Shown piece after piece: positions 1,897 to 16,868 of a DNA stretch of 55,921 bases (position 1 is its first letter; each line of letters begins with the position of its first letter). The translations under genes and the position numbers were made by a program. The notes under the pieces are model-generated. The model was not told where the DNA came from. It did not search any database and was given only the letters and a program-made list of their open reading frames with translations. Source of the stretch: a virus (taxonomy: Duplodnaviria > Heunggongvirae > Uroviricota > Caudoviricetes); the IMG/VR virus record IMGVR_UViG_2541047806_000003, positions 1-55,921 of that record; one strand, given 5' to 3'.

Positions 1897-3685
1897 TTTC
1901 GCTTAATTGCGCATCAGTTAATGCCTTATGCCATACTCGAAAATTTCTGATATGACCAAATAAATGACGTTGTCCTGTCGTTGTCTGACCACCGATACGA
2001 ATAGTTGCGGAGCTTTGAATATAAGTCCAGGTTGTTTTTATTTCGCTGGATATACGTCCGTTACTTATTGCACATGTCAATTGATCTGCTTTTACACGCA
2101 TCCCCATAACCATTTTTTCCAGCCCGGCATTTTCATTTATTCGTCGGTCTGAACCACTTATATTGCAATACGGAAAACCGTCGTACCCACCTGATGAACC
2201 AAACCCCATTTCGATCCCCGCTCCGGTTTGATGACCGCTGATATTAAAAACACGCGGTGCTGCATTTGGCGTTTTATACCAGTTCTTATGTACCTCACAA
2301 AGAACCGTAAAAGGAAGATTATAAAGGTTATTCTTGATTGGGACTGTCACCATATCGCTTGCCCGCGTTGCCGGTGCCGTCCCCGTAACAATAAAAGATG
2401 ATGCGCCTGTACCAGCCTCAATCTGTGGAGTGGTTACATCGAGATAATCCCCTGATGTAACCATCTGCCCTGTATCCGGAGAATACTGGACAAAACCACC
2501 AACCGTATTTTCTGTTGTATCTGCTTTTAATGTAGCCTCAAAAAATATCCAGCCAGTTGCATCATCCTTAACAGACCTTGCTGTAACACGGCTTGTCTGA
2601 CCTGTCTTGCTAATTATGCGGGTGGTAAGGTTCAGGTTTGCTGCTCCTATTGATGTCCTTACCTCCCCATCATAATGTTCAAATAAAATACGAACGGCGA
2701 TATTATCAACTTCACTTTTTACCCGACAGGATATAGTTACATGCTTTTCGTCCCCTGAAGTATCAACCCCTCCGGCACTCGAATACAGTCCGATAATGGC
2801 ATGCGCTTTACTTGTACCAACAATCGAATCCTGTACGACAAACCGGCCATAATTAAACCCGAAACTATCTGCGCCTGTTTCTGTAACGTCCAGTGAAGTT
2901 GACTTATTCCACTTCGAAGGGTCTGTACTGTTCTGGAAGAAGTTCGTTCTTTGTCCCTCAATAAGCAGGCCATCACACTCAAATCGCGGCTCATTAATTT
3001 CCGCCGTTTTCAGTTCGCCAGATTTGTTGATATATGTTGCCGTTGATGCGCGACTGAAATTAACCTGTTTATCACTGGCAACCTGAACCACATTATCGCC
3101 AATCTTCACTTTTTTATAACCCGGAGAATAGCCCGTAATCATATCCAGCGAATCATTAAAGGGCATCCACACATCCGGCAGCGGCTGTAAAACATACGCG
3201 TAAGGCTGCGCCGTCTGATTGGCGTATTCGTGGGCTTCGTCTCTGTATGTCTTAGCTGAATCGGCTGCGCTTGTCGCTGTTGTTGCAGCGTTGGTTGCAG
3301 TGGTAGCTGATTGTGATGCTAATTTTGAGGCTGAAATCACATCTTTGTTGTCGCTAAAAAATTCAACTGCGTCCGCTATTTCTGATTCTTTGCCCTGATA
3401 GTAACGCAGTGTTTCGGCGACATCCTGAGCAAGACCATCCACAGAGATCGAATCTGAAAGCAGGATGCTAAATTTAGTTCCAGCCGGAATAGCCGGACTT
3501 GCCGCAGGAGTTACCGACAAACTTGTTGCGCTTTTTACCTTTGTGATTGAAAAAATCTGCACCGGATCGCTAATGGCAATAAGAGTGCAACCCACTCTGA
3601 TCAGAGATAATGCGGCGTTGAATTCAGTCCCTGCCCCGGTAACTGTGTTTCCGCTAACAGCTATAGTGCCTGTTGTGTAAATCAT
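1889..3685 (-). CDS. Distal/side tail fibre protein
   Basis: 598 aa; N-terminal MIYTTGTIAVSGNTVTGAGTEF and Ala/Thr-rich repeat ATTATNAATTATSAADSAKTYRDEA typical of tail fibres; position after J-like gene. Confidence 0.7.
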   Translation of the reverse strand: MIYTTGTIAVSGNTVTGAGTEFNAALSLIRVGCTLIAISDPVQIFSITKVKSATSLSVTPAASPAIPAGTKFSILLSDSISVDGLAQDVAETLRYYQGKESEIADAVEFFSDNKDVISASKLASQSATTATNAATTATSAADSAKTYRDEAHEYANQTAQPYAYVLQPLPDVWMPFNDSLDMITGYSPGYKKVKIGDNVVQVASDKQVNFSRASTATYINKSGELKTAEINEPRFECDGLLIEGQRTNFFQNSTDPSKWNKSTSLDVTETGADSFGFNYGRFVVQDSIVGTSKAHAIIGLYSSAGGVDTSGDEKHVTISCRVKSEVDNIAVRILFEHYDGEVRTSIGAANLNLTTRIISKTGQTSRVTARSVKDDATGWIFFEATLKADTTENTVGGFVQYSPDTGQMVTSGDYLDVTTPQIEAGTGASSFIVTGTAPATRASDMVTVPIKNNLYNLPFTVLCEVHKNWYKTPNAAPRVFNISGHQTGAGIEMGFGSSGGYDGFPYCNISGSDRRINENAGLEKMVMGMRVKADQLTCAISNGRISSEIKTTWTYIQSSATIRIGGQTTTGQRHLFGHIRNFRVWHKALTDAQLSEIV

Positions 3686-3730
3686 CGCAATAACTCCGTT
3701 TTGTTAATTAACTAAACAATTCTACCATTT

Positions 3731-3746
3731 TGTGATCTGTGTTACA
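3731..3746. promoter_or_regulatory. CRP-like palindrome TGTGATCTGTGTTACA upstream of moron 1
   Basis: 9/10 match to TGTGA-N6-TCACA; part of recurrent CATTTTGTGATCTG motif. Confidence 0.3.
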
Positions 3747-3882
3747 CTTTGGGCTTATACATAATGTATTTTTTGATCTATATCAACATACGAAATGATA
3801 GCTTCTGCGGTGATTTGCTCATCGGATGGGTGGATCATCACGAACAACAAATGACAGTAAAACAAACAGTAAGGTGAATACA

Positions 3883-4128
3883 ATGAAAAAACTAATTGTT
3901 GCTTGCATCTTATCAGCTCTGTCTTTTGGTGCTTTTGCTTCTGTAAATTCGACAGATAAGAGTGATGCTGGCACTGCTCAATATGGTGATACTGGCCTTG
4001 ATAACCAACGTTCGAGTTATTTCAATACTGACTCATGGAAAGAAAAACAACTACAAGGTAAAATTATTGACAGTGAATGTAATTTACCTATCCATTTTTC
4101 TGGTATAAATGATGGGTGTAAAAAATAA
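3883..4128 (+). CDS. Small secreted protein (moron between J and tail fibre)
   Basis: 81 aa from ATG 3883 with SD AAGGTGA; N-terminal signal peptide MKKLIVACILSALSFGAFA; opposite strand to tail genes; own terminator. Confidence 0.5.
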   Translation: MKKLIVACILSALSFGAFASVNSTDKSDAGTAQYGDTGLDNQRSSYFNTDSWKEKQLQGKIIDSECNLPIHFSGINDGCKK

Positions 4129-4140
4129 AAACAATGCATA

Positions 4141-4167
4141 AAAAACGGGGCTTATGCCCCGTTTTTT
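4141..4167. terminator. Bidirectional rho-independent terminator
   Basis: Stem AACGGGGC/GCCCCGTT, loop TTAT, A-run upstream and T-run downstream. Confidence 0.6.
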
Positions 4168-7100
4168 ATGCTGTCGTTGATGTTCTAAATGATCCGGTGC
4201 CTCTTGCTACTATCATTGTTGGAGAATACAACGCGGTACAATATGCGTATCCTTCAGATGATGATGTTTGAGGACAATATATTTTCCCGATAATATCTGA
4301 TGCTTTTAAACCAGAAAAAGCGCATTGCACTGTTAATGTGCATCCACCATAAGGCACGTAATATGAAATTGTTTTGTTTTTATCTCCGCAACTAAACGTT
4401 ACGTTATAAGTGGATCTATATTCACCAGACATTAATGAAATAGTCGCCATAAGCATAACTGATTTCGTCAATGCATTATCCGTGCTGTCTTTATATGTGA
4501 TGGTTGCGCTATAACTTCCGTTATGCCCAAGCACTCGATCTGGACCAACCCCCATGTTAGCAACGTCACCGACAAATGACTTTGCCTCTACTGTACCTTT
4601 AAACTTCCCGCTTGTGGCCTGAATCTCACCAGTGAATTTACCAGATGTTGCGTACACCGTACCGCGTACAGTGACGTTGTTGAACTCCGCATTGCCGTTT
4701 TTATTTAGCATCCAGCCAGCCGAACCAGCTTTATAGTTGGTTGACTGAATTTGCTGCGCAATCTTCGCGGTAGTGATTGATGCGTCTCTGATCCACGCAT
4801 CACGGATGTAGCAAGCACCGTTAGTAACATAGAACGGGGTCTGATAGGAGCCACCTGCCGCAGTCATAAGCACGAAACGGTCAACGAGGAAAATACACTG
4901 CGATTGAACGTTAGTCCCGCTACCAGTAAGGCCGAGCGACATTCCTGTAGCGTATTTCATACCGTTTTTATCAGTGGCAATCTTAATTGAATATGACGCA
5001 TCAACGTTACCTTTGAAGTCAGTCAGTGCTTTTGATGTCGTTTCTATCGCCGTTGTGTTTCCGTTAATAGTTACTTTCAACTGGTCGATTCTGGTTGACA
5101 ATGCCTCGTCTGCCGTTGCCATAGCCTGTGACCATTCCGTGATGCTTGAGTTTACATCGTCGAAAGATGCCGAGATCTGGCCAAATTTTTCCGCGCTTGA
5201 TGTTTCATGCGTAGAAAGTGCAGTTGACACTTCGGATACTTTCGAATTAATCGTACTGGTAAGCGATGAGTTAAGGCTGCTGATTGCGTCAGTGCGTGCA
5301 TTCTTCTCATCTGCGATCGCTTTATCCATCCTGGTTACGTTGCTTGTCACCTTGCTATCGAGCGTGGAAATTGACGCATTAACCCCGCTAATAGCTTCTG
5401 CGCGTGCGCTCGCCTCATCTGCGATTGCTTTATCAAGACGGGAAACGCTCGCGTCGGTTTTGCTTTCAAGACTACTGACGCTGGCGTTAACGTTGCTAAT
5501 AGCTTCTGCGCGTGCGCTCGCCTCATCTGCGATTGCTGTGTCTACCCTTGCTATTTCCGCTTTTGTTTTTGTTTGTCCTTTCCTGTATTTCGCCTCAATA
5601 ACAGTGCTCATCTTGCTTTGCGCCATTGAGTTATTAATAAGCGCCAGAGATGCGTTTTGCAGACTTGCTTTCGCCTGATCTATCTCGTCGCTGTTTTTAT
5701 CAACCTCACTTTTAACGCCGCCAAGCGTCGCGCTGATACCTGATATCGCCTGAGCACGTGCGCTTGATTCATCAGCGATAGCTTGATCAAGACGGCTAAC
5801 ACTGGCATTTGTGTTATTTTCAAGCGTTGTTAAATCAGCTTTAACCACTGTTATTGCGTCGCTTCTTGCCTGCGTTTCATCTGATATTGCATTATCGAGG
5901 CGCTTAACGCTGGCGTCAGTTTTCTTGTCAAGTGTTGAGATACTTGCGTTCACGTCGCTGATAGCCTGAGTACGCGCACTTGTTTCGTCTGCAATTGCCT
6001 GATCAAGACGGTTTACGCTGGCGTCAGTTTTCTTGTCAAGATTGCTTATTGAGGCATTTACACCGTTAATAGCTTCAGCGCGGGCGCTGGCCTCGTCAGC
6101 TACTGCGCGTTGCACATTAGAGATCTGACCTTTAAGGTTTGTGTCCATCACATTCATTTCTGCCGTGATGGTTTCCAGTGATTCCGCTGTCGCTTTTTTC
6201 TCTTCAGCGATAACGTTGTCAATGCGGTCAATTTCCGCTTTCGTCTCTGTCCTGCCTTTCTTGTACTGAGCGGTAAGAGTTACGCGAGTGTTAGTCTGTG
6301 CAAGCGAGTTATTAATAAGAGCAAGTGAGGCGTTTTGCAGACTTGCTTTTGCTTGCGCCAGTTCGCTGCCAACTTTTTCGCTAGACACCTCCAGCGAGTC
6401 GATTCTCGACTCATGCTGTCCAATATCATCGGCGTTTTCCTTAACTTTTTTATAAAGATCTTCCGTTTCTTTTTTGAGCGTATCAGTATCAGCTTTTATT
6501 GATCCTGTTTCTATGGTTAGGTTGTCAGTTTCAGTCCTTAAATCGTCAGTTATGTTGGTCAGATTATCAGTTGCAGTTTTGAGGTTGTCAGTAGCAGTTT
6601 TAAGGTCATTCGTAGCGCTTTCGATAAGATCAGTGCGGTCGCCTAGATCTTTAATGTCACCAACCATTTCTTTAAATTGTTTGGAATTCATTACGTCTTT
6701 GGTGACGTAATCGGTAATTTCATCAAAGTTTTCTGTTGGCTTACCTGACGCTTCCACAAAGTCAGACACACCAAAAGCGTTACGCGCGCGCACATAAACG
6801 TAATATGTGTGACCTGTATTCATGCCGCCAAACGTCCACTGATGACCACGCCCAGTATATTGTGCTTTAGTGGTTATTGATGCCGGATCAGTGATCTGCG
6901 TTTCACCTGAGTAATAAAACTCGTAACTGGTATCAGTGGTGAGCGTTGTTCTGCTGATCGGGTAAACTGTAGCCTGGAATACACCGGGAACCCAATTAAC
7001 GCCAACTGGGGCCGCTGGTGCGCCAATAACCAGATCGACAATGCTTTCCGCACCCTTCATGCCCGTGTCATTTCTGCCACGAATGCCTAATGAGTAGTTG

Positions 7101-9136
7101 CCAGCATCAATGCCATAAAAATCATAACTGTAATTCGTGGTTTCGTAGCTTTTAACTACAGCGCCTTCGGCGTTATACACGCGAATCTCAAAGGTCAGGC
7201 GACGCGTTGTCGTCTGTGTTTCCCATGTTGCGCGACATTGAACCGTTTCAGATCCAACGTTTAACACCTTCAGATTTTCAATGTTCGGCACGCGGAAGTG
7301 ATTAAGCGTGTCGTTATTGATCTCGAAGATTGCGCCATTATCGACTACGGCCTGCTTATGTGGATCATGCTGTGCGGCCTCGATGGTGTATACGCTGTTA
7401 TTTTCTGTTTCTGCTACACTGGTGATTCGACATAAAACGGGTTTTGCTGCGTTGGTTGATACAGCAAAAACAGTGCCGTTACGAATCCACGCCGGGGCGG
7501 CTGCAAGGGTGATAATGTTCCCGTTAACTCCGATGATCTGGTGTTTTTTAAATTTACCATCGCTATCAAGTAAGCTGATGGTGTCGCCAGCCGCGATATA
7601 TTCAGAATCAACCTTGTCGACCGTGATCGCTCTGCCATTGTTCGCCACGATGCGACCGCCTAAACGAGCGCCTGCGCGATTATTATCGAGGATCTCGATT
7701 ATATCCCCCGGCGTAAAGTGAATGGCGTCACGGGCCATTTTAAATGTGAATTTTGACGGCTCGCGTTTCGCTGTTTCGATCAGCCATTTACCAGCGCGGT
7801 GCGCTTGCCCGCGTGAAGTGCAACCGAACGCCTCCAACGTGGTTTCGTTATAACCATCACGGGCGATTAGTTTATCATCTGCGACATATTCTTTTGATTG
7901 CTCCCAGCCGTTTTCAGGGTCAGTCCAGGATACGATCACGGCGTTGTAGCATTCTGCGCGTGCGATACTTGAACGAGTAAACGCGCCATCAACGACGTTT
8001 GCATTTGTGATGGTGGCGATTGGATCTTGTGGCGCATCAATCATCACGGTAAGACGTTGTCCGTCCCATAACGCGATACCACGGAACATACCTGCGATGT
8101 TGTCCAGTAGGTCGCGGGCGCTCATTTGCTCCGTAATGTAAGCGTTAAGCGTCATGCGAGGTTCAAGGCCACCATAGCCATCATCAACCAACTGATCGCA
8201 GTATTGAGAAAGCACGTACAAAGCGCCATCATCAACATCAATGTAACCAGCATGTCGAGCAAGTCCAAAGCGCTCGTTTTTAACCAGATACCGGAAAAGC
8301 CATGCAGGGTTATTGGTATACGCCTTTTTAAATCCACCAAGCCATAAACCTGAATATGTGCGCGTTTCAGGGTTGTAGTTGTCAGGCACATCAACAATCA
8401 GGCCGCGAAGGTGATAGGTGCGGGTAGGCGTATCAGTATACTGATCATGGTCAATTACGGCGCCAGCTACAGCGGTATGAGGATAAGACAGATTATCATC
8501 TATTATTTCGCTGTAACTACTCCACCGCGTATCATTCCGCAATAGATCGCCGTTGCTGTCTGGTGTTATGCGACGAACGCGAATATCAAACGGTTTTTCA
8601 TCCGGCGCTTTAATGATGTGAGCTTCCAGGTATTCACCGCTTTGTTTACCAGGGCCAATGTGTATGTCTTTAATCAGCGACCACGTAGAAGATGATGACG
8701 GTTTAACATCAACCATCAACATGACGGATGTATTATATTGATTGCCCTTTTCATCTGACTGAACGAGAGCATCAACACCAAGATTCAACCTGACGCGGGT
8801 AACGTTTGGATCTGAAACAGTCCTGATTATTGGTGTGTCGTGAGTTACCTTTGCGTTGACAATAACGGTTGACTCAATGGCGTTAAAACCATTAATCGGC
8901 GATTGGTCAGCCGTGCCGTTGCGCCAGGCTATACTAATCCCCGGAATTGATGTATTCCCGTTTGCGTCAGTAACAGGAGTGTCATTAAGCATCACGTCAT
9001 TCAATGGCGCTTTCTGGTTTACCGGACCGTATATCGGCCCTTCGCTGAGAATATCTAAAACACGATAAAACTGTTTGTGATACAGGTTATCGTTCAATAA
9101 TGTTGGTGTTTTGGCTTTGCCGCCGCCGCTACTCAT
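4166..9136 (-). CDS. Host-specificity / central tail fibre protein (lambda J-like) with long coiled-coil repeat extension
   Basis: 1656 aa; N-terminal two thirds resemble lambda gpJ (e.g. YSGLWLGGFKKAYTNNPAWLFRYL); residues about 920-1400 are heptad-like repeats (DASVSRLDKAIADEASARAEAISGVNASIS...). Confidence 0.85.
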   Translation of the reverse strand: MSSGGGKAKTPTLLNDNLYHKQFYRVLDILSEGPIYGPVNQKAPLNDVMLNDTPVTDANGNTSIPGISIAWRNGTADQSPINGFNAIESTVIVNAKVTHDTPIIRTVSDPNVTRVRLNLGVDALVQSDEKGNQYNTSVMLMVDVKPSSSSTWSLIKDIHIGPGKQSGEYLEAHIIKAPDEKPFDIRVRRITPDSNGDLLRNDTRWSSYSEIIDDNLSYPHTAVAGAVIDHDQYTDTPTRTYHLRGLIVDVPDNYNPETRTYSGLWLGGFKKAYTNNPAWLFRYLVKNERFGLARHAGYIDVDDGALYVLSQYCDQLVDDGYGGLEPRMTLNAYITEQMSARDLLDNIAGMFRGIALWDGQRLTVMIDAPQDPIATITNANVVDGAFTRSSIARAECYNAVIVSWTDPENGWEQSKEYVADDKLIARDGYNETTLEAFGCTSRGQAHRAGKWLIETAKREPSKFTFKMARDAIHFTPGDIIEILDNNRAGARLGGRIVANNGRAITVDKVDSEYIAAGDTISLLDSDGKFKKHQIIGVNGNIITLAAAPAWIRNGTVFAVSTNAAKPVLCRITSVAETENNSVYTIEAAQHDPHKQAVVDNGAIFEINNDTLNHFRVPNIENLKVLNVGSETVQCRATWETQTTTRRLTFEIRVYNAEGAVVKSYETTNYSYDFYGIDAGNYSLGIRGRNDTGMKGAESIVDLVIGAPAAPVGVNWVPGVFQATVYPISRTTLTTDTSYEFYYSGETQITDPASITTKAQYTGRGHQWTFGGMNTGHTYYVYVRARNAFGVSDFVEASGKPTENFDEITDYVTKDVMNSKQFKEMVGDIKDLGDRTDLIESATNDLKTATDNLKTATDNLTNITDDLRTETDNLTIETGSIKADTDTLKKETEDLYKKVKENADDIGQHESRIDSLEVSSEKVGSELAQAKASLQNASLALINNSLAQTNTRVTLTAQYKKGRTETKAEIDRIDNVIAEEKKATAESLETITAEMNVMDTNLKGQISNVQRAVADEASARAEAINGVNASISNLDKKTDASVNRLDQAIADETSARTQAISDVNASISTLDKKTDASVKRLDNAISDETQARSDAITVVKADLTTLENNTNASVSRLDQAIADESSARAQAISGISATLGGVKSEVDKNSDEIDQAKASLQNASLALINNSMAQSKMSTVIEAKYRKGQTKTKAEIARVDTAIADEASARAEAISNVNASVSSLESKTDASVSRLDKAIADEASARAEAISGVNASISTLDSKVTSNVTRMDKAIADEKNARTDAISSLNSSLTSTINSKVSEVSTALSTHETSSAEKFGQISASFDDVNSSITEWSQAMATADEALSTRIDQLKVTINGNTTAIETTSKALTDFKGNVDASYSIKIATDKNGMKYATGMSLGLTGSGTNVQSQCIFLVDRFVLMTAAGGSYQTPFYVTNGACYIRDAWIRDASITTAKIAQQIQSTNYKAGSAGWMLNKNGNAEFNNVTVRGTVYATSGKFTGEIQATSGKFKGTVEAKSFVGDVANMGVGPDRVLGHNGSYSATITYKDSTDNALTKSVMLMATISLMSGEYRSTYNVTFSCGDKNKTISYYVPYGGCTLTVQCAFSGLKASDIIGKIYCPQTSSSEGYAYCTALYSPTMIVARGTGSFRTSTTA
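4940..6380. repeat. Intragenic tandem repeat region within J-like gene
   Basis: Exact 41-bp repeat TAATAGCTTCTGCGCGTGCGCTCGCCTCATCTGCGATTGCT at 5388-5428 and 5507-5547 plus many degenerate copies encoding the coiled coil. Confidence 0.6.
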
Positions 9137-9149
9137 GGTTTTTCTCCTG

Positions 9150-9680
9150 TTAACTTACAACGTCTAAGGCGTCTCTATTGTTGCTTGTGTCTATGCCTAA
9201 CGATCCGACGTTTGAACCTATTTTCATTTCACCTAATAGTATTGGCACTGGTCTACCCTGGCCCACCTTGTTTTCAATGCTGGTGTAGGTGTTGTTCGTT
9301 ATGGTGTTATCTTGTGCGCTTTCTGCCGATGTTTTTATCTTCATGTTGCGGGACATAAAGATTGAGAACGCAACGCTAACCACCGAAACACCAATCAGGA
9401 TCCAGCCTACAACACCAATCCCAGCAATACCGCCTTCAACTACTGGCGCAATAATGACGGTAGTTCCGTCAGGGTATTTACTATTAACCGCTGCCGGGGC
9501 CGTCTTTTCGTTATAATCTTTCCCGGCAATCCGTAACCGCAAAGGTGTATTTAAAAAAGCCTTCTTGAATTCCTGATTCTGCGCGGTCAATAAGCGAAGC
9601 CCTTGCGCTGGCGTTTCAACGTTTAAACACACTTTGCTGTAATATCTTCGAAGATTGCCCGTAAATCTAAATTTGAGCAT
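9150..9680 (-). CDS. Tail assembly protein (lambda I-like); 5' end uncertain
   Basis: 176 aa, C-terminal hydrophobic segment, position between K-like and J-like genes; ORF overlaps K-like 3' end by 58 nt. Confidence 0.65.
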   Translation of the reverse strand: MLKFRFTGNLRRYYSKVCLNVETPAQGLRLLTAQNQEFKKAFLNTPLRLRIAGKDYNEKTAPAAVNSKYPDGTTVIIAPVVEGGIAGIGVVGWILIGVSVVSVAFSIFMSRNMKIKTSAESAQDNTITNNTYTSIENKVGQGRPVPILLGEMKIGSNVGSLGIDTSNNRDALDVVS

Positions 9681-10354
9681 TTATCAGATCTCCATATTGA
9701 ATGCGTTTGTCGAACATAAGCGGGCCGCATTTGCTCGCGGCGGCTTAACAGTCCGGCATTGTCATGATGCAAAACAGTGTTATCGCCCAGGTAAATCATC
9801 GCGTGGCATGGGTCAGCGCCTTTGAACGGCTGCCTGATTATTACGTCACCTGGCTGGATGCTTTGCGCATCAACCTGATAAAACCCGTTTCGCGGCAAGT
9901 TTTTTAAATACAGGTTTTCACCGCGAAGCCACCAGCCATCAAGGCGCTCGAAGTCCGGTAGATCCACGCCACAAAGGTGATATGCGTCGCGGAAAAGCGC
10001 GTAGCAGTCTGTTTTCCCGTGCTCAAATTTTCGGCCTAACAGGTGCGCTACCGGGCGGAATTTTCTAACCCTGCCACCGGAGCATAAAAGCCACGGGAGG
10101 CCGGAAATAACCTGTTGTTGTCGATCCAGCGCAGACAATACCGGAATATCATCAACGTGAGAGTGAAAAACGGCGGTTATAACGCCTAATTCGTCAGCTT
10201 TGATGTAATCGTCCGGCGAAATTTTGAAGCTGTTGTATGGCGTTTCAGATACGTTAGCGCACGGGTAAAAATATTCGTTATTTATCACCAGGCCGCAAAC
10301 TTCCTCACGCGGGTGAGCTGCGGCGTAGCGAACCATTTTGTCTTCAAGTGCCAT
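9623..10354 (-). CDS. Tail tip assembly protein (lambda K-like; MPN/JAMM plus NlpC/P60-like)
   Basis: 243 aa; JAMM-like motif AVFHSHVDD; position between L-like and I-like. Confidence 0.8.
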   Translation of the reverse strand: MALEDKMVRYAAAHPREEVCGLVINNEYFYPCANVSETPYNSFKISPDDYIKADELGVITAVFHSHVDDIPVLSALDRQQQVISGLPWLLCSGGRVRKFRPVAHLLGRKFEHGKTDCYALFRDAYHLCGVDLPDFERLDGWWLRGENLYLKNLPRNGFYQVDAQSIQPGDVIIRQPFKGADPCHAMIYLGDNTVLHHDNAGLLSRREQMRPAYVRQTHSIWRSDKCSNLDLRAIFEDITAKCV

Positions 10355-10356
10355 AA

Positions 10357-11061
10357 TTAGCCCACCTTACTTGAACCGGGGAAACAGGAAATTGGTAACG
10401 GATTTGGACGCGGGAAACGTAAACGACAACCGCTCAGACGGTGGCTACATCTGTCGGCTTTAGGATCGCTTGTCGGCTCGTCTTTATCGTTTGCTACTGG
10501 TCCGCCAGCGTACATACACCCGTCGCCTCTGTATTGCCACTGGCAAACGTCAGCAAGGATGGTGCGCCCAGGGATGACAGCTTTATCTGCATCAATTGGC
10601 GTTGACAGTTCATACTGCACCTGATCCGCTGTTTCTTCGCTCATTGCTTCAACGACGTAAAAAGATACAGCCTCAATAGATGGATCTGCGTCTGGATTAC
10701 CGTTAGGGAAGTTAACGGCGTCAAGATATTTCACCTCCACCTGGCGGCGCGTAACCTTCATTCCTCTAAGGTCGTTAAAATCGTTGTTCATCCCCGTAAT
10801 GAGTCCGCCGATATTGGCTACAACCATTTGAGGCCGTGAATAAACACCCTCATTTTTCATTTCGAAGCCCGTCGCCTCGATCGGGTAGCTGTTGTAAGCT
10901 ACTCCCTTCCAGATAACCTGGCCGTAATAGCCGTTCGCGCCGGAATGGAAGCGGATAACCTCGCCTCCCAGGGGAGTAAGGTCCAGTTCAAATAAGTCAA
11001 TGACCGCGCCAACTCCGGCATCGACGGAATCAATAATCATCTCTCTCGGAATATTGCGCAT
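10357..11061 (-). CDS. Minor tail protein (lambda L-like)
   Basis: 234 aa; C-terminal Cys cluster CSHRLSGCRLRF as in gpL; gene order M-L-K-I-J. Confidence 0.85.
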   Translation of the reverse strand: MRNIPREMIIDSVDAGVGAVIDLFELDLTPLGGEVIRFHSGANGYYGQVIWKGVAYNSYPIEATGFEMKNEGVYSRPQMVVANIGGLITGMNNDFNDLRGMKVTRRQVEVKYLDAVNFPNGNPDADPSIEAVSFYVVEAMSEETADQVQYELSTPIDADKAVIPGRTILADVCQWQYRGDGCMYAGGPVANDKDEPTSDPKADRCSHRLSGCRLRFPRPNPLPISCFPGSSKVG

Positions 11062-11079
11062 TTTCTCACCTTGTCATTT

Positions 11080-11095
11080 TGTGATCTGCGTCACG
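11080..11095. promoter_or_regulatory. CRP-like palindrome TGTGATCTGCGTCACG upstream of moron 2
   Basis: 9/10 match to TGTGA-N6-TCACA consensus; about 60-70 bp upstream of candidate promoter start. Confidence 0.3.
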
Positions 11096-11116
11096 CTAAA
11101 TCATACCAAAATGGAT

Positions 11117-11145
11117 TGATCGTGGTTTTTACAATATGTATATTT
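11117..11145 (+). promoter_or_regulatory. Candidate sigma70 promoter for moron 2 (TTGATC-N17-TATATT)
   Basis: -35/-10 hexamers with 17-bp spacer read directly from sequence. Confidence 0.3.
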
Positions 11146-11190
11146 TACTCAAACGAAGGGGAAGTTAACAAAATGGCGCGGAGGTGCGTT

Positions 11191-11379
11191 ATGACTGAAA
11201 AGCTATGGAAGTTGACGGTATTCATGACAGACGGTAGGGAAAAGGTTATCGCCCTGTATGACGACGAGGGGGAAGCATTGGTTGACGCGCTTTTACTTGC
11301 TGAGGATGACCGCCTTTTGGGATACCAGATCGAACCTGTCAAATATGATGCTAACAAAAATGAAAAAATACAGTCTTGA
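11191..11379 (+). CDS. Hypothetical small acidic protein (moron 2, gene 1)
   Basis: 62 aa from ATG 11191 with SD GGAGGTG; in-frame upstream ATG at 11174 also possible. Confidence 0.4.
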   Translation: MTEKLWKLTVFMTDGREKVIALYDDEGEALVDALLLAEDDRLLGYQIEPVKYDANKNEKIQS

Positions 11380-11707
11380 TGTGTGGTTAAGTGGTAGCAA
11401 GGAGTGTTTCGGATTATTTGATAGCGAAGAAGTAGCCCTGGAAGAAGGCAGGATTCTTGAATGTAGTTTAGGCCATCCAGTGAAATATACTGCTAATCCG
11501 GTACAGATAGTTGATGAGGTGGAAGATATGAACCCGAAAGATATTAATGTTAACTTCAATGTTAATTTTGCAGACTCTATGGATCAGTCTTGCCCTGGTG
11601 AAATACACGCAAAAGGTTTCCCGGCTGACGATCCAGAAGCAAAACGCGAATACGAAAAAGCTGCGAAAGATTTCTGTATCGATAACCTTTCAGCATTCGA
11701 TAAATAA
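11360..11707 (+). CDS. Hypothetical acidic protein (moron 2, gene 2)
   Basis: 115 aa from ATG 11360 (MKKYSLDVWLSGSKE...); overlaps gene 1 stop region. Confidence 0.45.
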   Translation: MKKYSLDVWLSGSKECFGLFDSEEVALEEGRILECSLGHPVKYTANPVQIVDEVEDMNPKDINVNFNVNFADSMDQSCPGEIHAKGFPADDPEAKREYEKAAKDFCIDNLSAFDK

Positions 11708-11716
11708 GGCGGCAAC

Positions 11717-11965
11717 ATGGGGCGGCGCAATCACGGTGATTATGTGTACACGTTGAAACAGGCCGCCCGCCTCATCGGTTATCATGAACACGAATTTATT
11801 GATTTGCTGATTGAGCGCGGGATACTGTACCAGGTCTGCTTAACGCTGTACCCTAAAGCGAAATACCTACAGGAAAAGTTATTTATCATCATGACGGATG
11901 AAAACCAGGTTAATCACTCATTCGTCACTGATAAGGGCGTTAATTATCTGCGTGATAACTTATAG
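11717..11965 (+). CDS. Small helix-turn-helix DNA-binding protein (moron 2, gene 3)
   Basis: 82 aa; YTLKQAARLIGYHEHEFIDLLIERGIL resembles excisionase/MerR-type HTH. Confidence 0.5.
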   Translation: MGRRNHGDYVYTLKQAARLIGYHEHEFIDLLIERGILYQVCLTLYPKAKYLQEKLFIIMTDENQVNHSFVTDKGVNYLRDNL

Positions 11966-12095
11966 GTGACTGATTATAAAAATAGAAGTTTTGGCGCTAA
12001 TAATAATGGGGTTGATAGTATTTGGCGTTCATGCTGTAGATCTGGACTGGAAAACGATAGCAGAAAATATAGCATTAATGGAAATAGAATAAAAA

Positions 12096-12125
12096 TAACC
12101 CCGCTTCGCGCGGGGTCGTGTTTAT
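12096..12125. terminator. Bidirectional terminator
   Basis: Stem CCCCGC/GCGGGG with A-run upstream and T-rich tract downstream. Confidence 0.5.
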
Positions 12126-12319
12126 ACGCCATCAACCAAAAATAAAACCTCCTTCCCTTCCCGGGATCTACACCCAACGTACCCATCACCAACGTCGTGA
12201 AGATACCATATATCGCCGTTGTCAGCTTTTACAGTAAGGTCGTTGATCTCATAGTCGTCAAACAATGTAAAAGCGTAAGTTTTGTCAACTACACAAGTCC
12301 CGTACATAACAACCCCCAT
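12122..12319 (-). CDS. Small protein, distant member of paralogous family also found at 32.3-33.9 kb
   Basis: 65 aa; shares D-x-G-D/H-x-W-Y motif (ADNGDIWYLHD) with ORFs 32353, 32573, 32822, 33034, 33725; start abuts M-like stop. Confidence 0.45.
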   Translation of the reverse strand: MGVVMYGTCVVDKTYAFTLFDDYEINDLTVKADNGDIWYLHDVGDGYVGCRSREGKEVLFLVDGV

Positions 12320-12672
12320 TAGCCAACAACTTGCTCAAACGTTGCGTTTAGCGTGTACAAAGGCCCGTCTTTAGTCATGCTCCATTGCCGACAGACAAAA
12401 AGCCTTTGCACGTTATCCATTGACGGCGACCAGTAAAAAGCCTCGACCGCGCCGCGCGCCCTCAAGAATGCTTCCGCCTGGATTGCTACGTTTCCACCAT
12501 CACCACATCCGGCGCTACTGCCTTTAAACACCAGGGTGTAGCTATCAAGCAATGGATTGATACCTTTTACCTGTCTTTGCTCATAACCATCGCCCAGCTT
12601 AACAACAGATACGTCTGGCTTCCTGGTCACGCTGTAGCTTCTTTGCGGCGTCCATCTGAACACTTCCGGCAT
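12319..12672 (-). CDS. Minor tail protein (lambda M-like)
   Basis: 117 aa; VKLGDGYEQRQ and C-terminal ATFEQVVG match gpM pattern (lambda ends AEFEQVVN). Confidence 0.85.
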   Translation of the reverse strand: MPEVFRWTPQRSYSVTRKPDVSVVKLGDGYEQRQVKGINPLLDSYTLVFKGSSAGCGDGGNVAIQAEAFLRARGAVEAFYWSPSMDNVQRLFVCRQWSMTKDGPLYTLNATFEQVVG

Positions 12673-12705
12673 AAAACCCCCACAAGTTACATTTTGTATA
12701 TATCT

Positions 12706-12731
12706 TTACGCGCTTCTACGCGAAAAATAAG
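12706..12731. repeat. Conserved 26-bp element TTTACGCGCTTCTACGCGAAAAATAA (copy 1, upstream of M-like gene)
   Basis: 24/26 identical to 25055-25080 upstream of portal gene; contains direct TACGCG repeats. Confidence 0.35.
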
Positions 12732-12743
12732 ATCATTGTCACA
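12727..12743. promoter_or_regulatory. Perfect palindrome ATCATTGT-C-ACAATGAT (operator-like)
   Basis: 8-bp inverted arms read directly; about 30 bp upstream of candidate -35 of moron 3. Confidence 0.35.
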
Positions 12744-12770
12744 ATGATTATAGCTAGTTTACAAAATGGC

Positions 12771-12799
12771 TTCACATAGCACGCAACAAGATGTATATA
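12771..12799 (+). promoter_or_regulatory. Candidate sigma70 promoter for moron 3 (TTCACA-N17-TATATA)
   Basis: Hexamers with 17-bp spacer, TG immediately upstream of -10. Confidence 0.3.
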
Positions 12800-12839
12800 G
12801 AAAGCAAGAAGAAAGTAGTACCAACGAAGGAGGCTCAAA

Positions 12840-12995
12840 ATGAAACGCTATGTAGTAGTAATGCTAAATAACGCATTCGAACAAGTGGAAATAGCAATCG
12901 TTAAGGGTTTCGACGACGCATTCAAATACGGTCAATTCATGATGAATGCGAAAGAAGATGAATACCGGGACTTCTTCCTGAAGGCACTTAACTAA
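12840..12995 (+). CDS. Hypothetical small acidic protein (moron 3, gene 1)
   Basis: 51 aa (MKRYVVVMLNNAFEQVEIAIVKGFDDAF...), strong SD AAGGAGG; below 60-aa ORF-track cutoff. Confidence 0.4.
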   Translation: MKRYVVVMLNNAFEQVEIAIVKGFDDAFKYGQFMMNAKEDEYRDFFLKALN

Positions 12996-13012
12996 GGATG
13001 ATGGGGTGAGTT

Positions 13013-13267
13013 ATGAAACTGGTAGCGATTGACAGAAATCTGAAAGCACAGAAAAACGCACAGGACCGGATCATCAAGAAAGGTAAGGAATTACTTAAAG
13101 CCTTTCTGAGAAAAGAAGTTTACCCCAAAAAGTTACGCGACGGTTACGGATACAAAATGGATATCAATCTTGATTGGAGGCTGTTTAGCGAAGATTTGAA
13201 GGTTTGGTTAATTGTTGAGCACCATGCCTATAACAAGTTATGTGGCGTGAAAGGCACTCATAAGTGA
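13013..13267 (+). CDS. Hypothetical basic protein (moron 3, gene 2)
   Basis: 84 aa, SD GGGGTGAG, 17 nt after gene 1 stop. Confidence 0.5.
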   Translation: MKLVAIDRNLKAQKNAQDRIIKKGKELLKAFLRKEVYPKKLRDGYGYKMDINLDWRLFSEDLKVWLIVEHHAYNKLCGVKGTHK

Positions 13268-13326
13268 GTCGAGATATTCGAAAGGGGATATATCGCGCGG
13301 AATGGTCGTTTATAAATACGAAAAAT

Positions 13327-13359
13327 AACCCCGGCATTGCACCGGGGTTTAGTTTATTT
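13327..13359 (+). terminator. Rho-independent terminator of moron 3
   Basis: Stem AACCCCGG/CCGGGGTT, loop CATTGCA, then T-rich tract. Confidence 0.6.
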
Positions 13360-15696
13360 GCGGCGAGGTTGCAACATTCCGCCTGGTCTTTGAGATTCCC
13401 TTGTTATCATTTTCATGGCTACACGTTCCATTGTTAATTCAAGTCTGCGGCTGTCTTCGTCGCTGAATCCGTTCGTGGTCTGAATGCTGATACTGACAGG
13501 CATACTAATACCGCCACCGCCGCCAATATCACGGCCCGGAATAACTCTGCCGTTCTCGCCAGGGATCATATATTGATTGCCGTTAGATGTCTGGAATAGC
13601 TCCGGCCTGTTGTGTTCCCCTACGCGGTACATATTACCACCAATGACGCTACCACCATTAAAGCGACCGCCGCCGAAAATTGACGTAGCCAGCGACATGA
13701 TCGCAGTGAGCGCCGCCGAACCAGCCGCCGCCCAGCTACCGCCAGTTGACGCCGCAGTTGCCGCCGCTGCTGGGGCCGCCGCCGCAGCAATGCTTCCCTG
13801 AGCTGCTACCGCGCTTGCTGTTGTACTTGTTTGCGTGGCCTTGCTTTGTGTCTCCATCATGATCTGATCTGCTATCCAGTTTGCAGCTATGTCTGAGAGT
13901 CTGTTACCGATATTGCCGAGTATATTGCTTCCTAAGTTAGCAAAAACATCACTCAATGATTGAGTGCCGTTTAACAGGCCAACAAGCGCATTACTCATTC
14001 CGCCTTTAAGGCCATTAACACAATCACCGATAAGGCCGTTTGTGTCGCTTTGCGCCTGCCATTGTTCCCATTTCAGATCGCGGATCTGTTGCTCATAGGC
14101 TAACAATTCCTGTTTCTGTTGCGCTTCAGTAGCGCCCAGGTCTATAAGCATTTGCTTACGGATGGCCCATTCATTTTGCGCCTGCTGGATGGGGTCAACT
14201 TCGCCTTTTAGCTGATCCATCGGGCTTACTATTTGTGACCATTTATCACGCAATTCATCTACCGGAATTTGTGCTAATTCTTCTTTCAGTTCCTTGCCGA
14301 TCCCTTTTTGCGCGGCGCGGTACTCAAGGAGCGTGATTTTACCCTGGGCAAATGCAGCATCAATGGCCTTGCCGTTCTCCAACGCTTTGCGCATGGCGGC
14401 GGCGTCTTTGTTGTACTGATCAGAAACGCTTATACCTTTGTCACCAAGCCGATCAGCTTCCGATTTCTTCTCTTTTTTCTGTTTTTTCGGCTTGTCTACT
14501 GGCTTGTCGAATCCGGTAATCGCTCCGTCATTGGCAGCATTCTGTTCATTTTTCCTTGCTTCTTCTGTAGCCTGGATTGCTGCGGTCAGATCATCCTGTA
14601 GTTGCATGACCTTGCCAACGGTCTTCCCGTATTTCTTCTCGTAGTTGCTGTTATATTCGTCGGTTTGCTCTCCTACTACCTCCTTCATCCATTTATAGCC
14701 ATCCATTAGCGCCTTGATTGGCGTCACCATTGCGATGATCTTCTCTGCCACCTCTCCAGCCTTAACAGCCACATCATCAAACATGTCGATAAATTCGCTA
14801 CCAGCCGTTTTGAGTGTGTCGAAGCAGGTTTTAGCGAATTTAGCGCCATCGCCAAGCCCTTTAACGCCTTTCGTGATCAAGTCGATAGCTGAAACAACGC
14901 CATCTGACACGCCAAAAAGATCATCCAACTGCTCAACAAGGCCCATAATTTCTACTTTAAGCTCATTGATAGCCATGCCGGATGTGCGCGGCAACTGAGC
15001 AAACTTATCGTTTGTTTCCTGCGTAGCCGCCTGTATTGCGTTAACCATCCTTTCAGCCGTGATCTTGCCGTCCAGCATTTCGGCGCGGAACTGGCCCATT
15101 GATAATCCCATATGGCGGGCCATTGTTTGTACGATGGTCGGCGTATTTTCAAGCAGGCTGTTAAATTCTTCGGCACGAAGAACACCGCCGTCGATAGACT
15201 GACGGAATTGACGCATTGAGTTAGACATCTGTTCCGCTGACGCGCCGCCTAATGCACCCATTTTCTGAATAGTGCCAACCAGGTTAAGCAATTGCCCTTC
15301 CGTAGCGGAGGTGTTTTTTAGTGAGATAGCCAGGCCTTGCCATAATTCGCCAGTATCTTTCAGGCTCTGCCCCGTCTCCCTGGATATTGCTTTCAGGCCG
15401 TCGAAAACCCGTCCGGCGGACTCCGCATCGCCCGTAAGCATTTTGATTTTTACGCGAAGCATTTTTGCTTGCTCCGCCATATCCATAAATTGGCGCACAG
15501 CCTCCGCAGCAATTAGCAGATGGATAACCCTGGTCAGTGCCTTGATGGATGTTTTCAGGGTGTTTACCTGGCGGTCAGCCTGTTTTGCGCCGCGCTCTAT
15601 ACGATCAAAGGCCTGGTCTGCCTGTCGTTGTGCAACGAGAAGTTGACCAGTTTTCGCATCAACTTCGTAATAAATTGTACCTACACTGGTAGCCAT
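13354..15696 (-). CDS. Tail tape measure protein
   Basis: 780 aa, alpha-helical, Ala/Gly-rich C-terminal part, position between chaperone and M-like. Confidence 0.85.
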   Translation of the reverse strand: MATSVGTIYYEVDAKTGQLLVAQRQADQAFDRIERGAKQADRQVNTLKTSIKALTRVIHLLIAAEAVRQFMDMAEQAKMLRVKIKMLTGDAESAGRVFDGLKAISRETGQSLKDTGELWQGLAISLKNTSATEGQLLNLVGTIQKMGALGGASAEQMSNSMRQFRQSIDGGVLRAEEFNSLLENTPTIVQTMARHMGLSMGQFRAEMLDGKITAERMVNAIQAATQETNDKFAQLPRTSGMAINELKVEIMGLVEQLDDLFGVSDGVVSAIDLITKGVKGLGDGAKFAKTCFDTLKTAGSEFIDMFDDVAVKAGEVAEKIIAMVTPIKALMDGYKWMKEVVGEQTDEYNSNYEKKYGKTVGKVMQLQDDLTAAIQATEEARKNEQNAANDGAITGFDKPVDKPKKQKKEKKSEADRLGDKGISVSDQYNKDAAAMRKALENGKAIDAAFAQGKITLLEYRAAQKGIGKELKEELAQIPVDELRDKWSQIVSPMDQLKGEVDPIQQAQNEWAIRKQMLIDLGATEAQQKQELLAYEQQIRDLKWEQWQAQSDTNGLIGDCVNGLKGGMSNALVGLLNGTQSLSDVFANLGSNILGNIGNRLSDIAANWIADQIMMETQSKATQTSTTASAVAAQGSIAAAAAPAAAATAASTGGSWAAAGSAALTAIMSLATSIFGGGRFNGGSVIGGNMYRVGEHNRPELFQTSNGNQYMIPGENGRVIPGRDIGGGGGISMPVSISIQTTNGFSDEDSRRLELTMERVAMKMITRESQRPGGMLQPRRK

Positions 15697-15823
15697 GATT
15701 TAACCTCATGCAAAAATGTGATCTGTGTATCTATTTTATACAAAATGGCTTTACTTCAACGACTCCATTTTGTATAAGGAAGCTAAAGGGAATGGTCAGT
15801 AAATCAAGTTAGCGTGGTGGGTT

Positions 15824-16483
15824 ATGAAACGGTTAGCAAAAGTGGCAATGATTGCGGCGGTATTGGGTCTGGTTGGTTGCAATGAGGATAATGAAAAAGC
15901 GCCTATAGTGACCAATCAAGAGCAACAAGCATTAGCAGAGAAAAATGCTAAATGGCTTGCAGAACAACAAGCAAAACAAGCCGCATACGATGCACAGTTA
16001 GAAAAAGAAAATGCTGGTAAACAGTGGCTTGTAGTTGAAAGAAAAGATGATATGCAGGACGCAAAAAACGTATTCCTTTTTGTGAAAGCAGAACAATTCA
16101 GCGGAAGTCTTGATGCTTTCCCGACACTGAAGGCACAGGATAAGAATAAACCGGTATTAACAATCGCTTGCCAGGGTAATAAAACAAAAATGTTCGTAGC
16201 ATGGTCACACCATGTAACTGACGCCGGGGACACTACTTATATTAACTACCGGATCGGCGTTCACAAAGCTGTAGCTACTGAGTGGTGGCGGTCAACTAAT
16301 TATAAAGCTCTTGGATTATGGGACGGCAAAAAAGCCATCCCAATGATTAAAAAACTGGTTAACGAAAAACAATTCATCATTGAAGTAGTGCCGGAAGCTG
16401 GCGACATTGAGAAAGCAGTGTTTAACATTGATGGTCTTTATAACCACATCGACAAAGTGAAAAACGCTTGCAACTGGAATTAA
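15824..16483 (+). CDS. Lipoprotein (moron 4, gene 1)
   Basis: 219 aa; signal peptide plus lipobox LVGC; SD GGTGGG. Confidence 0.6.
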   Translation: MKRLAKVAMIAAVLGLVGCNEDNEKAPIVTNQEQQALAEKNAKWLAEQQAKQAAYDAQLEKENAGKQWLVVERKDDMQDAKNVFLFVKAEQFSGSLDAFPTLKAQDKNKPVLTIACQGNKTKMFVAWSHHVTDAGDTTYINYRIGVHKAVATEWWRSTNYKALGLWDGKKAIPMIKKLVNEKQFIIEVVPEAGDIEKAVFNIDGLYNHIDKVKNACNWN

Positions 16484-16493
16484 GGGGTAAATC

Positions 16494-16868
16494 ATGAAAA
16501 AAATAATCAAAGCGGTTCTCATTGGTGTTATGGCTTTAGCTCTTACAGGGTGCGCAAGATCAACTGATTTCGTTAAGTTAGCTGATAAAAATTTGCAAGT
16601 TGGAATGACTTGTGAGCAAGTGAATAAAATAATGGGGGAACCACAAAGAATCGAGCATGACGGTAATTATAGTTATCACGTATGGTATTCAGTAACCAGC
16701 ACGATAGGATTTACTTACATGGATGTTGAAGAATTATCCCCTTCAAGGGTTATCGCAAAGTTTGATAACTGCATCCTAAAAGAATGGAAAGATCGCAGTA
16801 AGGCAAAGTCTGTATACAATACAATCACACACAGTTCACCAGGTACAGCAATTAAAGATTTCAATTAG
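16494..16868 (+). CDS. BamE/SmpA-OmlA-like lipoprotein (moron 4, gene 2)
   Basis: 124 aa; lipobox LTGC; LQVGMTCEQVNKIMGEP resembles BamE motif. Confidence 0.55.
   Translation: MKKIIKAVLIGVMALALTGCARSTDFVKLADKNLQVGMTCEQVNKIMGEPQRIEHDGNYSYHVWYSVTSTIGFTYMDVEELSPSRVIAKFDNCILKEWKDRSKAKSVYNTITHSSPGTAIKDFN

Follow-up and report, generated by a model that had tools for sequence, protein, structure and literature searches.

The cyclic AMP (cAMP) receptor protein (CRP) is the sugar-starvation regulator of Escherichia coli, and CRP-dependent promoters carry its site centred at -41.5 (class II, as at galP1) or at -61.5 (class I, as at lac P1), -71.5 or -82.5, with the malE/malK region as a further known case. 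In phages, morons are reportedly promoter-gene-terminator units placed between conserved phage genes, as Juhala et al. in 2000 and Hendrix et al. are said to have described for bor and lom of lambda and for HK97/HK022. Promoter-stem-loop cassettes (PeSLs), reportedly described by Arbiol et al. in 2010, flank exchangeable genes in T4-type phages, and the stoperators of mycobacteriophage L5 are said, after Brown et al. in 1997, to be many copies of an asymmetric repressor site spread genome-wide. Here we describe a repeated sequence, TGTGATCTG(T/C)G, in a stretch of 55,921 nt (IMG/VR record IMGVR_UViG_2541047806_000003; the window is this whole stretch), which is E. coli chromosome with a prophage that is, by its sequence, a member of the mEp021-like (mEpimmI) group. 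The minus-strand tail operon of this prophage is broken at four conserved slots, named here after the fibre, L, M and tape measure genes, by plus-strand cassettes consisting of a predicted promoter, cargo genes and a predicted bidirectional terminator. The repeated sequence, equivalent to CATTTTGTGATCTG(T/C)G, is the near-consensus promoter-distal half plus spacer of a 22-bp TGTGA-N6-TCACA dyad at the edge of these cassettes, and the best explanation, which we hold to be rather likely from the sequence features below, is that host cAMP-CRP binds the dyads and activates the plus-strand cargo promoters.

The repeat was detected as CATTTTGTGATCTGTG at 3726–3741, CATTTTGTGATCTGCG at 11075–11090 and AAAAATGTGATCTGTG at 15712–15727, and is thus present at all three places given in an earlier note on this DNA, although the coordinates of the second copy had been 1 nt off. 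Its core TGTGATCTGYG has four exact matches in the window (3731, 11080, 15717 and 28204) against 0.04 expected, and four matches were reached in 0/100 shuffles. The copy at 28204 was rejected as a chance occurrence, as it lies inside an open reading frame (ORF; 28027–28599, minus strand), has a CRP-matrix score of 3.6 and is without a second half-site; a fifth near-copy, TGTGATCTGTA, is found on the opposite strand at 32343–32353. Seen from the other strand the consensus half is AGATCACA, and the shared 11-mer is AGATCACA with three spacer bases. When read along the tail-gene strand, the complete dyads are GTGTAACACAGATCACAAAATGG (TGTAA-N6-TCACA) in the fibre slot, GCGTGACGCAGATCACAAAATGA (CGTGA-N6-TCACA) in the L slot and TAGATACACAGATCACATTTTTG (AGATA-N6-TCACA) in the tape-measure slot.

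Dyads were scored with a symmetric CRP matrix made from 16 classical sites, which themselves mostly score 11–16.5. The fibre-slot site (site 1, 3728–3749, core TGTGA-TCTGTG-TTACA at 3731–3746) scored 14.5 and ranked 4th among 55,900 positions, and the L-slot site (site 2, 11077–11098, core TGTGA-TCTGCG-TCACG at 11080–11095) scored 15.6 and ranked 1st in the window; both have 1 mismatch in 10 core positions relative to TGTGA/TCACA, and the TGTAA-N6-TCACA of site 1 is the same half-site pair as in a classical malE-region site. The tape-measure-slot site (site 3, 15714–15735, TGTGA-TCTGTG-TATCT) scored 11.5, and a site in the M slot (12725–12746, TAAGA-TCATTG-TCACA, with TAAGATCATTGTCACA at 12728–12743) scored 10.7. 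Four further dyads lie outside the tail region: 46712–46733 (score 15.3), between the repressor gene and a divergent early promoter (TTGATC-16-TAAACT); 38453–38474 (15.0), upstream of a minus-strand promoter (-10 TATACT) preceding a nutR2-like boxA/boxB; 41855–41876 in the early region (12.0), upstream of a weak minus-strand -10 (TAAACC) and conserved in mEp021; and 32333–32354, scoring below the match at 12725, upstream of the minus-strand promoter TTGTTT-17-TATAAA. Intergenic dyads take most of the leading places in the window-wide ranking, in which the matches at 11077, 46712, 38453 and 3728 were on top, followed by 54537, 41855, 35190, 15714, 3769 and 12725, with 32333 a little lower; the match at 3769 was discarded as a CRP site, being really an FNR-type box. 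The M-slot site, the near-copy at 32343–32353 and the three further good dyads at 38456, 41858 and 46715 had escaped the earlier note.

The half-sites are far better conserved than the bases between them. We retrieved 80 loci around L-protein homologues from IMG/VR, 43 from the mEpimmI group and 37 from a distant group (~71% identity in L), used tblastn to find where the tail genes start and kept the top-scoring matrix match upstream of each, which gave 27–38 distinct upstream sequences and 12–20 site variants per slot. The majority-base fraction was 0.94–0.99 in the ten half-site positions versus 0.74–0.86 in the central six. Relatives read GCGTGA-(C/T)NNN(G/T)-ATCACAAAA in the L slot, with GCGTGA and ATCAC invariant in the 17 site variants while the central 4 bp vary (CGCA, TGGC, TTTA, CAGC, TTGA, CTCA and others). 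The fibre slot carries TG(T/C)AA-N6-TCACA, always 53 nt from the fibre ATG, and the tape-measure slot AGAGA or AGATA-N6-TCACA, 25–28 nt from the ATG, where GATCACA forms a conserved island amid variable bases and scores reach 16.1 (AATAGAGATCTAGATCACACTT); in the M slot, TGTGA-N6-TCTCA is found 62–65 nt from the M ATG, with scores of up to 16.3 (CATTGTGATGAAGATCTCATTT). To judge from these alignments, the pattern is the signature of a dimer reading two 5-bp half-sites 6 bp apart.

The GATC in the repeat, to which the earlier note had drawn attention as a Dam site, did not share this conservation, as relatives carry TATCACA, CATCACA, AATCACA or GATTACA instead. Because GATC is replaced in relatives and is part of the consensus half TGTGATC, the Dam site appears to be a by-product rather than a selected feature. 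A switch in which GATC methylation is functional, as at pap or agn43, would account for the GATC in all three sites of the window genome and in most relatives, but we give it very little credence: several relatives lose GATC while keeping ATCACA, GATC is an expected by-product within the consensus half-site TGTGATCT, and each site has one GATC, whereas known Dam switches have paired or clustered GATCs.

The dyads are also enriched and specific. In mEp021 the seven best matrix matches are the seven homologous sites, and all seven are intergenic while 10.4% of its 22-mers are intergenic (P ~1e-7). Composition-matched random mEp021 intergenic DNA gave 0.29 matches at a score of >=11.5 versus 7 observed, a number reached in 0/300 trials. 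Overall, the dyads are ~25-fold enriched over composition-matched random DNA and control phages; phage lambda has 2 matches at >=10.5, both coding, and where the tail loci of the mEpimmI group reach 9.2 matches per 50 kb, the distant group has 0.35.

Each site lies in a divergent intergenic region adjoining plus-strand genes, as the earlier note had it, and the repeats are separated from the start codons of the minus-strand genes by 40 nt for fibre (3685), 13 nt for L (11061) and 15 nt for tape measure (15696), i.e. 13–40 nt instead of the 18–50 bp claimed. Short divergent intergenic regions, in which the activator site would be the outermost element of the promoter on the other strand, account for this proximity to tail-gene starts. 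Those promoters were predicted with our own hexamer scoring, as a ready-made promoter scan was too strict (it needs T at -10 position 6) and found the L-slot promoter only, and positions are given relative to a transcription start site (TSS) assumed 7 nt after the predicted -10. The predicted plus-strand promoter in the fibre slot has the -10 TATTTT (3767–3772; TATATT in mEp021) and no -35, with the dyad centre at ~-40.5. The predicted L-slot promoter, TTGATC-17-TATATT (11116–11144, plus strand), has the dyad centred at -63.5 (-62.5 in 13/32 relatives), the best promoter score in its own intergenic region and both hexamers invariant in relatives. In the M slot a putative TTCACA-17-TATATA promoter (12771–12799, plus strand) has the centre at -70.5, and in the tape-measure slot a putative TTTACT-17-TATAAG promoter (15750–15778, plus strand) has it at -60.5. 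The predicted starts (~3779, 11151, 12806 and 15785) would give cargo 5′ untranslated regions of 34–104 nt, ending in good ribosome-binding sites. At the predicted promoters outside the tail region the centres are at -60.5 (32.3 kb and 46.7 kb), -59.5 (41.8 kb) and -58.5 (38.4 kb).

Dyad-to-promoter distances are invariant within the mEpimmI group. The tape-measure-slot spacing was identical in 33/33 unique relatives, where the promoter is conserved despite differing cargo, and the fibre-slot spacing was constant in 20/20 relatives with a match to the -10 anchor (31 unique sequences, including 8 without an anchor match and 3 without a site). When the eight promoters (four slots and 32.3, 38.4, 41.8 and 46.7 kb) were aligned, one architecture was apparent, consisting of the dyad, a spacer of 14–25 bp, often ACAAAATGG against a -35-like hexamer, and (C)CAT(T/A)(T/A)TG against the -10 (TATAAG, TATATT, TATATA, TATACT, TAAACT or TATTTT). 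Several of the predicted -10s are without the -7 T (TATAAG, TATATA, TATAAA) or the promoter is without a -35, and such imperfect -10 or absent -35 elements are expected of activator-dependent promoters. The tape-measure-slot promoter (15708–15815, plus strand) and the 32.3-kb promoter (32255–32360, minus strand) are clear paralogues, sharing the dyad half AAATGTGATCTGT, the distances to ACAAAATGGC and CCATTTTGT and a similar transcript start (GAAGCTAAAGGGA versus GAAGCTGAAGAGA). The FNR-type box of the fibre slot (TTGATCTATATCAA, TTGAT-N4-ATCAA, at 3773–3786) is perfect and lies 41 bp from the CRP-type centre; it reads TTGA(T/C)-N4-ATCAA with variable N4 in most relatives and is absent from mEp021, and its commonest variant has a -10-like GATATT at class II distance downstream.

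The sites follow the cassettes, not the tail genes. The fibre slot holds an 81-aa lipoprotein gene (3883–4128, plus strand; signal peptide and Cys in the translation, no Pfam match) at the position of the mEp021 Lpp exclusion gene, a lipoprotein gene with reported exclusion function (PMC11893012). The L-slot cargo (11191–11965, plus strand) consists of three small ORFs, the last a KilAC antirepressor fragment; the M slot (12840–13267, plus strand) encodes a 51-aa ORF and a protein with a ParE-like toxin domain (PF24732, E = 9e-12), and the tape-measure slot (15824–16868, plus strand) a VasI/TagO-like lipoprotein (PF11319, E = 1e-15) and a BamE-like lipoprotein. Stem-loop terminators predicted on both strands close the cassettes at 4136–4171 (fibre slot), 12097–12117, 13327–13349 and 16875–16891. 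The cargo genes thus lie between conserved phage genes, vary or are absent in relatives, and have a promoter and a terminator of their own according to sequence predictions, two features of morons. The "three independent insertion points" of the earlier note are actually four slots, conserved across the whole phage group, and the same four are found in mEp021 and MagusPhagus with partly different cargo. In three relatives (L025, L033 and L036) the fibre slot is empty, with J followed directly by the terminator and the fibre gene, and in a fourth (L034) it contains an unrelated cassette; none of the four has the dyad there. Phages with different cargo retain the promoter and the dyad, and homology ends ~15 nt into the predicted transcript. 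Because the site is lost with the cassette and kept when the cargo changes, it is an element of the cargo promoter and neither of the tail gene nor of an insertion junction, and the tie to tail genes drawn by the earlier note is incidental, the site being the upstream edge of the plus-strand cargo promoter. In one relative (L030) an extra 157-aa same-strand ORF stands between the M-slot cassette promoter and the M gene, and the dyad there therefore no longer adjoins a tail-gene start.

The CATTTTGT part of the repeated sequence belongs to a second, far more abundant motif, CCATTTTGT / TACAAAATGG, with 16 exact 9-mers and 10 exact 10-mers in 56 kb (~0.2 expected for the 10-mer). It is mostly intergenic, with the sense copy abutting the -35 and the antisense copy (CCATTTTGTA) abutting the -10 of predicted promoters. 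Copies are located at 3725–3734, 12760–12769, 15739–15748, 15765–15774, 32295–32304, 32321–32330, 38416–38425, 38480–38489, 41817–41826, 45920–45929, 46763–46772, 49599–49608 and 50737–50746, among others, and those at 45920 and 46763 flank the repressor gene, at both promoters beside it. At the tape-measure slot a perfect 13-bp inverted repeat (TTATACAAAATGG-N17-CCATTTTGTATAA, 15736–15778) brackets the -35 and covers the -10 of the predicted promoter. The overlap of the dyad with this second motif is partial, and strict in the fibre slot only. Relatives differ in the L-slot bases outside the 22-mer (the "CAT" of CATTTTGTGA), which makes the CRP-type 22-mer itself the selected unit at the sites. 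The motif TACAAAATGG may be a docking site for the alpha C-terminal domain (alpha-CTD) of RNA polymerase, a spacer element or the site of a phage protein; its sense copy matches 7/9 positions of the proximal UP-subsite consensus. It probably marks the promoters of the phage, and as it overlaps -10 elements it might be a repressor site.

Among the readings that the earlier note had offered, the CRP half-site pair is best supported by the sequence, given scores in the classical range, conserved half-sites around a variable spacer, class I- or class II-like distances to predicted promoters and the ~25-fold enrichment. From these we infer CRP as the binder and activation as the direction of its effect. 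The dyad would form the upstream edge of each cassette promoter, in a class I-like arrangement in the tape-measure, L and M slots (centres ~-60.5, -63 and -70.5), where the A-tract ACAAAATGG between site and -35 would offer a docking place for the alpha-CTD, and in a class II-like arrangement in the fibre slot (~-40.5, without a -35). The same arrangement recurs at the four predicted promoters outside the tail region, among them the one opposite the repressor gene and the one ahead of nutR2. The tail operon on the minus strand would meanwhile be read by Q-antiterminated RNA polymerase; as a Q antiterminator is present, the late transcript is expected to pass through the terminators, and the tail genes would therefore need no promoters of their own. 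Several points weigh against CRP-dependent activation. The matrix and the sigma-70 hexamer weights are approximate versions of classical data sets, and the scores obtained with them are likewise approximate. The centres are 1–3 bp off the textbook -41.5, -61.5 and -71.5 and rest on assumed start sites, the second half-site of site 3 is weak in the window genome (AGATA), and the footprint loses power through the closeness of the relatives, which are 84–100% identical in L. Some of the eight promoters are paralogues, clearly in the case of P1 and P2, so that the spacing they share does not represent eight independent observations.

A further difficulty for CRP-dependent activation is the presence, immediately upstream of the dyad in three or four slots, of tail-sense -10-like hexamers with scores equal to or above those of the cargo promoters, so that the dyad could act as an operator. 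This is the basis of the strongest rival, which we consider unlikely, in which tail-sense sigma-70 promoters restart tail transcription after the terminator and the protein bound to the dyad, CRP or another, represses them, for instance in the lysogen. The tail-sense elements are TGGTAGAAT with an extended -10 in the fibre slot (dyad centre -26.5), TGGTATGAT in the L slot (~+6), GTGAAG-17-TATAAT in the M slot (+4.5) and TTGAAG-15-TAAAAT in the tape-measure slot (+1.5), and in the fibre slot the -10 (TAGAAT or TAAAAT) and a palindrome, GTTAATTAAC, are retained even in relatives without the cassette. However, the positions of the dyad relative to these elements are inconsistent (-26.5, ~+6 or +47.5, +4.5 and +1.5), and at the four dyads outside the tail region such an upstream -10 is missing, although each is followed by a promoter relative to which it lies at ~-60. 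In several relatives the key A of the tail-sense -10 in the L slot is lost (TGTGAT, GCGAT), whereas the cargo hexamers are invariant, the site vanishes with the cassette while the fibre gene and the -10-like element stay, and antitermination by Q makes restart promoters unnecessary. The two readings are compatible, as a CRP dimer could activate the cargo promoter while occluding the divergent one. The fibre-slot palindrome is an invariant 10-bp sequence (3703–3712, minus strand) between TGGTAGAAT (3719–3727) and the fibre ribosome-binding site, an arrangement suggesting that the fibre gene has its own promoter and operator.

It is likewise improbable that the dyads are bound by a dimeric regulator encoded by the phage itself, either the Cro-like winged-helix protein (46995–47252) or the CI-like repressor, which would tie the cassettes to the immunity switch. 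The immunity region does contain one dyad (46712–46733), flanked by the repressor gene and the divergent early promoter, the dyads are always accompanied by the phage-specific TACAAAATGG, and the whole cassette is confined to the group in IMG/VR. Repressor and Cro operator sets normally have several sites overlapping both early promoters, whereas the dyad in the immunity region is single, and none is found at the main 45.93-kb early promoter (TTGACT-17-TATATT). In 8 bp of one half and in the 6-bp spacing the dyads agree with the host CRP consensus, and they occupy activator, not operator, positions. The repressor is a relative of lambda CI and P22 c2, whose known operators differ in geometry from the dyad; its PDB match was to lambda CI only, and a search for its relatives found none in genome contigs and, in the phage collection, nearest non-group repressors at <=45% identity. 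All mEpimmI members have a single immunity type in common (PMC11893012), and a shared immunity type would likewise conserve a phage-specific operator. The immunity region is nearly identical between the window and mEp021, and thus allows no footprint there. It also contains a 27-bp imperfect inverted repeat (46720–46780, TGCAAGTCACAAAACGTGTATTTTAAG / CTTAAAATTCCATTTTGTAAACTTGCA) across the divergent promoters between the repressor and the rightward genes, with an inner part, ATTTTAAG-N7-CTTAAAAT, centred on the -35 of the plus-strand promoter and resembling P22 c2-type half-sites; this repeat is a candidate repressor operator.

The earlier note had also proposed a conserved junction left by moron acquisition. 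That the motif is such a scar or recombination junction, or a relic of promoter-cassette duplication without binding function, we regard as very improbable, even though the promoters share one architecture and include clear paralogues (P1 and P2), cargo is exchanged between phages at the slots, and the non-essential spacer bases TCTGYG are common to three or four sites in the window genome. Homology breaks not at the motif but downstream of the cargo promoter (~+15) and at the terminator, ~75–80 bp from the motif in the tape-measure slot. Moreover, the flanks and second half-sites differ among the four slots, which are thus not simple copies, conserved half-sites with a variable spacer point to selection on the dyad instead of neutral decay, and relatives without the cassette do not retain the site. 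The idea of a promoter cassette with wide mobility was discarded as well, after an IMG/VR scan gave 16 full-cassette stretches, of which 14 were on mEpimmI L-locus contigs and two on further contigs. Least credible of all is an RNA hairpin in the tail-sense late mRNA upstream of the fibre, L and tape-measure ribosome-binding sites, for although the dyad could form a 4–5 bp stem 13–40 nt upstream of the start codons, folding both strands of the three sites gave z-scores of 0.05–0.60 versus shuffles with minimum-energy structures that mostly bypass the dyad, the window has no Rfam match, and the arms are invariant and not covarying. Readings as IHF, Fis, DnaA, LexA, sigma-32 or sigma-S sites, or of CCATTTTG as an extended -10, were dropped by eye for poor fit or wrong geometry.

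The presence of a CRP-type site upstream of each predicted accessory-gene promoter in the tail region suggests, without proving it, that the accessory genes respond to the nutritional state of the host. If true, at least two early promoters would be wired to the catabolite state, together with the toxin-like protein and the exclusion and envelope lipoproteins, and phage accessory-gene expression, possibly also the choice between lysis and lysogeny, would be linked to carbon availability in the gut. More speculatively, and as a conjecture we hold only tentatively, the mEpimmI group may run on one reusable module, in which a host CRP site is joined to a TACAAAATGG/CCATTTTGTA pair bound by a phage-specific factor, used at least 8 times (at the four tail cassettes, at the promoters that face the repressor gene and feed nutR2/Q, and at two further early promoters), with cAMP gating the lysis-lysogeny circuitry and every accessory gene, those for the superinfection-exclusion lipoprotein, the toxin-like protein and the VasI-like lipoprotein among them, while the phage factor adds an immunity-linked layer. 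CRP-type activator sites are well known; what is undescribed is their setting, in which a coliphage group prevalent in the gut has them at each accessory cassette and at several of its early promoters. The mEp021-like phages are reported to be as frequent as lambdoid phages in human faecal isolates, and the mEpimmI group consists of Nus-dependent, non-lambdoid temperate siphophages (PMC11893012). That paper, the sole one found on the group, covers the mEpimmI repressor, nut sites, integrases, receptors and Lpp exclusion lipoproteins, and is silent on CRP, tail-region gene promoters and operators; promoters, operators and accessory-gene regulation of mEp021-like phages were not previously described. 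A literature search for CRP-regulated morons returned nothing specific, and one with the motif strings primer noise only.

The mEp021 element TERM_4 (88–121 of locus L002; record positions 20087–20120), the "predicted t4" of PMC11893012, coincides with the homologue of the 38453–38474 dyad, which sits between a TTTACAAAATGG copy and the promoter (-10 TATACT) preceding nutR2. It is probably not a terminator, and our analysis suggests correcting the t4/TERM_4 annotation. In the distant group (L047–L083) a strong stem-loop and T-run, such as GCCACCTCCGGGTGGCTTTTTTT, stands in front of the L and fibre homologues, directly before the ribosome-binding site, and the regions upstream of these genes are without an opposite-strand cassette and without a CRP-type site.

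The window starts with abgB (1–1446) followed by a truncated abgT, a gene among the attachment sites given for the mEpimmI group (PMC11893012), and the prophage spans from ~1.6 kb to the window end. Its tail region (3.3–16.9 kb) has 84–88% identity to mEp021 and its relatives mEp010, mEp013, mEp044, mEp515, mEp554 and MagusPhagus, and is 98–99.9% identical to prophages of a few E. coli genomes; a related region was present in 35/5426 complete genomes. The minus-strand tail genes are the fibre gene (1889–3685, ATG at 3685), a J-like gene (4166–9136), I (9150–9680), K (9623–10354), L (10357–11061), an M-like gene (12319–12672) and the tape measure gene, the lambda H analogue (13354–15696). The Q-type antiterminator is encoded at 36234–36956 (PF03589), and downstream of the Q gene region a 424-bp ORF-free gap (35061–35484) contains a moderate CRP-matrix match (35190–35211, score 11.6); a late promoter and Q-utilisation site could be located in this gap.

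Compared with the described systems, the predicted mEpimmI promoters resemble class I and class II CRP promoters of E. coli in their 22-bp TGTGA-N6-TCACA dyad with one strong and one weaker half, in predicted centres near -41, -61 and -71, in a weak or absent -35 or imperfect -10, and in A/T-rich DNA between site and -35. Unlike those promoters, the sites belong to a prophage, would serve accessory cassettes and early phage promoters, and are always accompanied by the phage-specific TACAAAATGG. The cassettes are like phage morons in having a predicted promoter and terminator of their own between conserved tail genes and variable cargo that includes lipoproteins and a toxin-like protein, but differ in that the slots and the promoter/CRP-site/terminator frames are kept group-wide with only the cargo swapped, and in an orientation always opposite to the tail operon; a further difference is that the opposite-strand gene gp80 of mEp021 is annotated as encoding a virion protein. 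With PeSLs they share repeated similar promoter modules that surround variable genes and could provide the homology for exchanging cargo, although phage type and promoter class are different and the full cassette is confined to one phage group. Finally, TACAAAATGG is similar to the L5 stoperators in being 10–13 bp long and present in many copies in the short intergenic spaces of a temperate phage, including both sides of the repressor gene, but unlike stoperators it occurs in both orientations at fixed promoter positions, for which a role as UP element or spacer is equally possible; in the reusable-module conjecture, the layer added by the phage factor would be comparable to stoperators, but in a coliphage.

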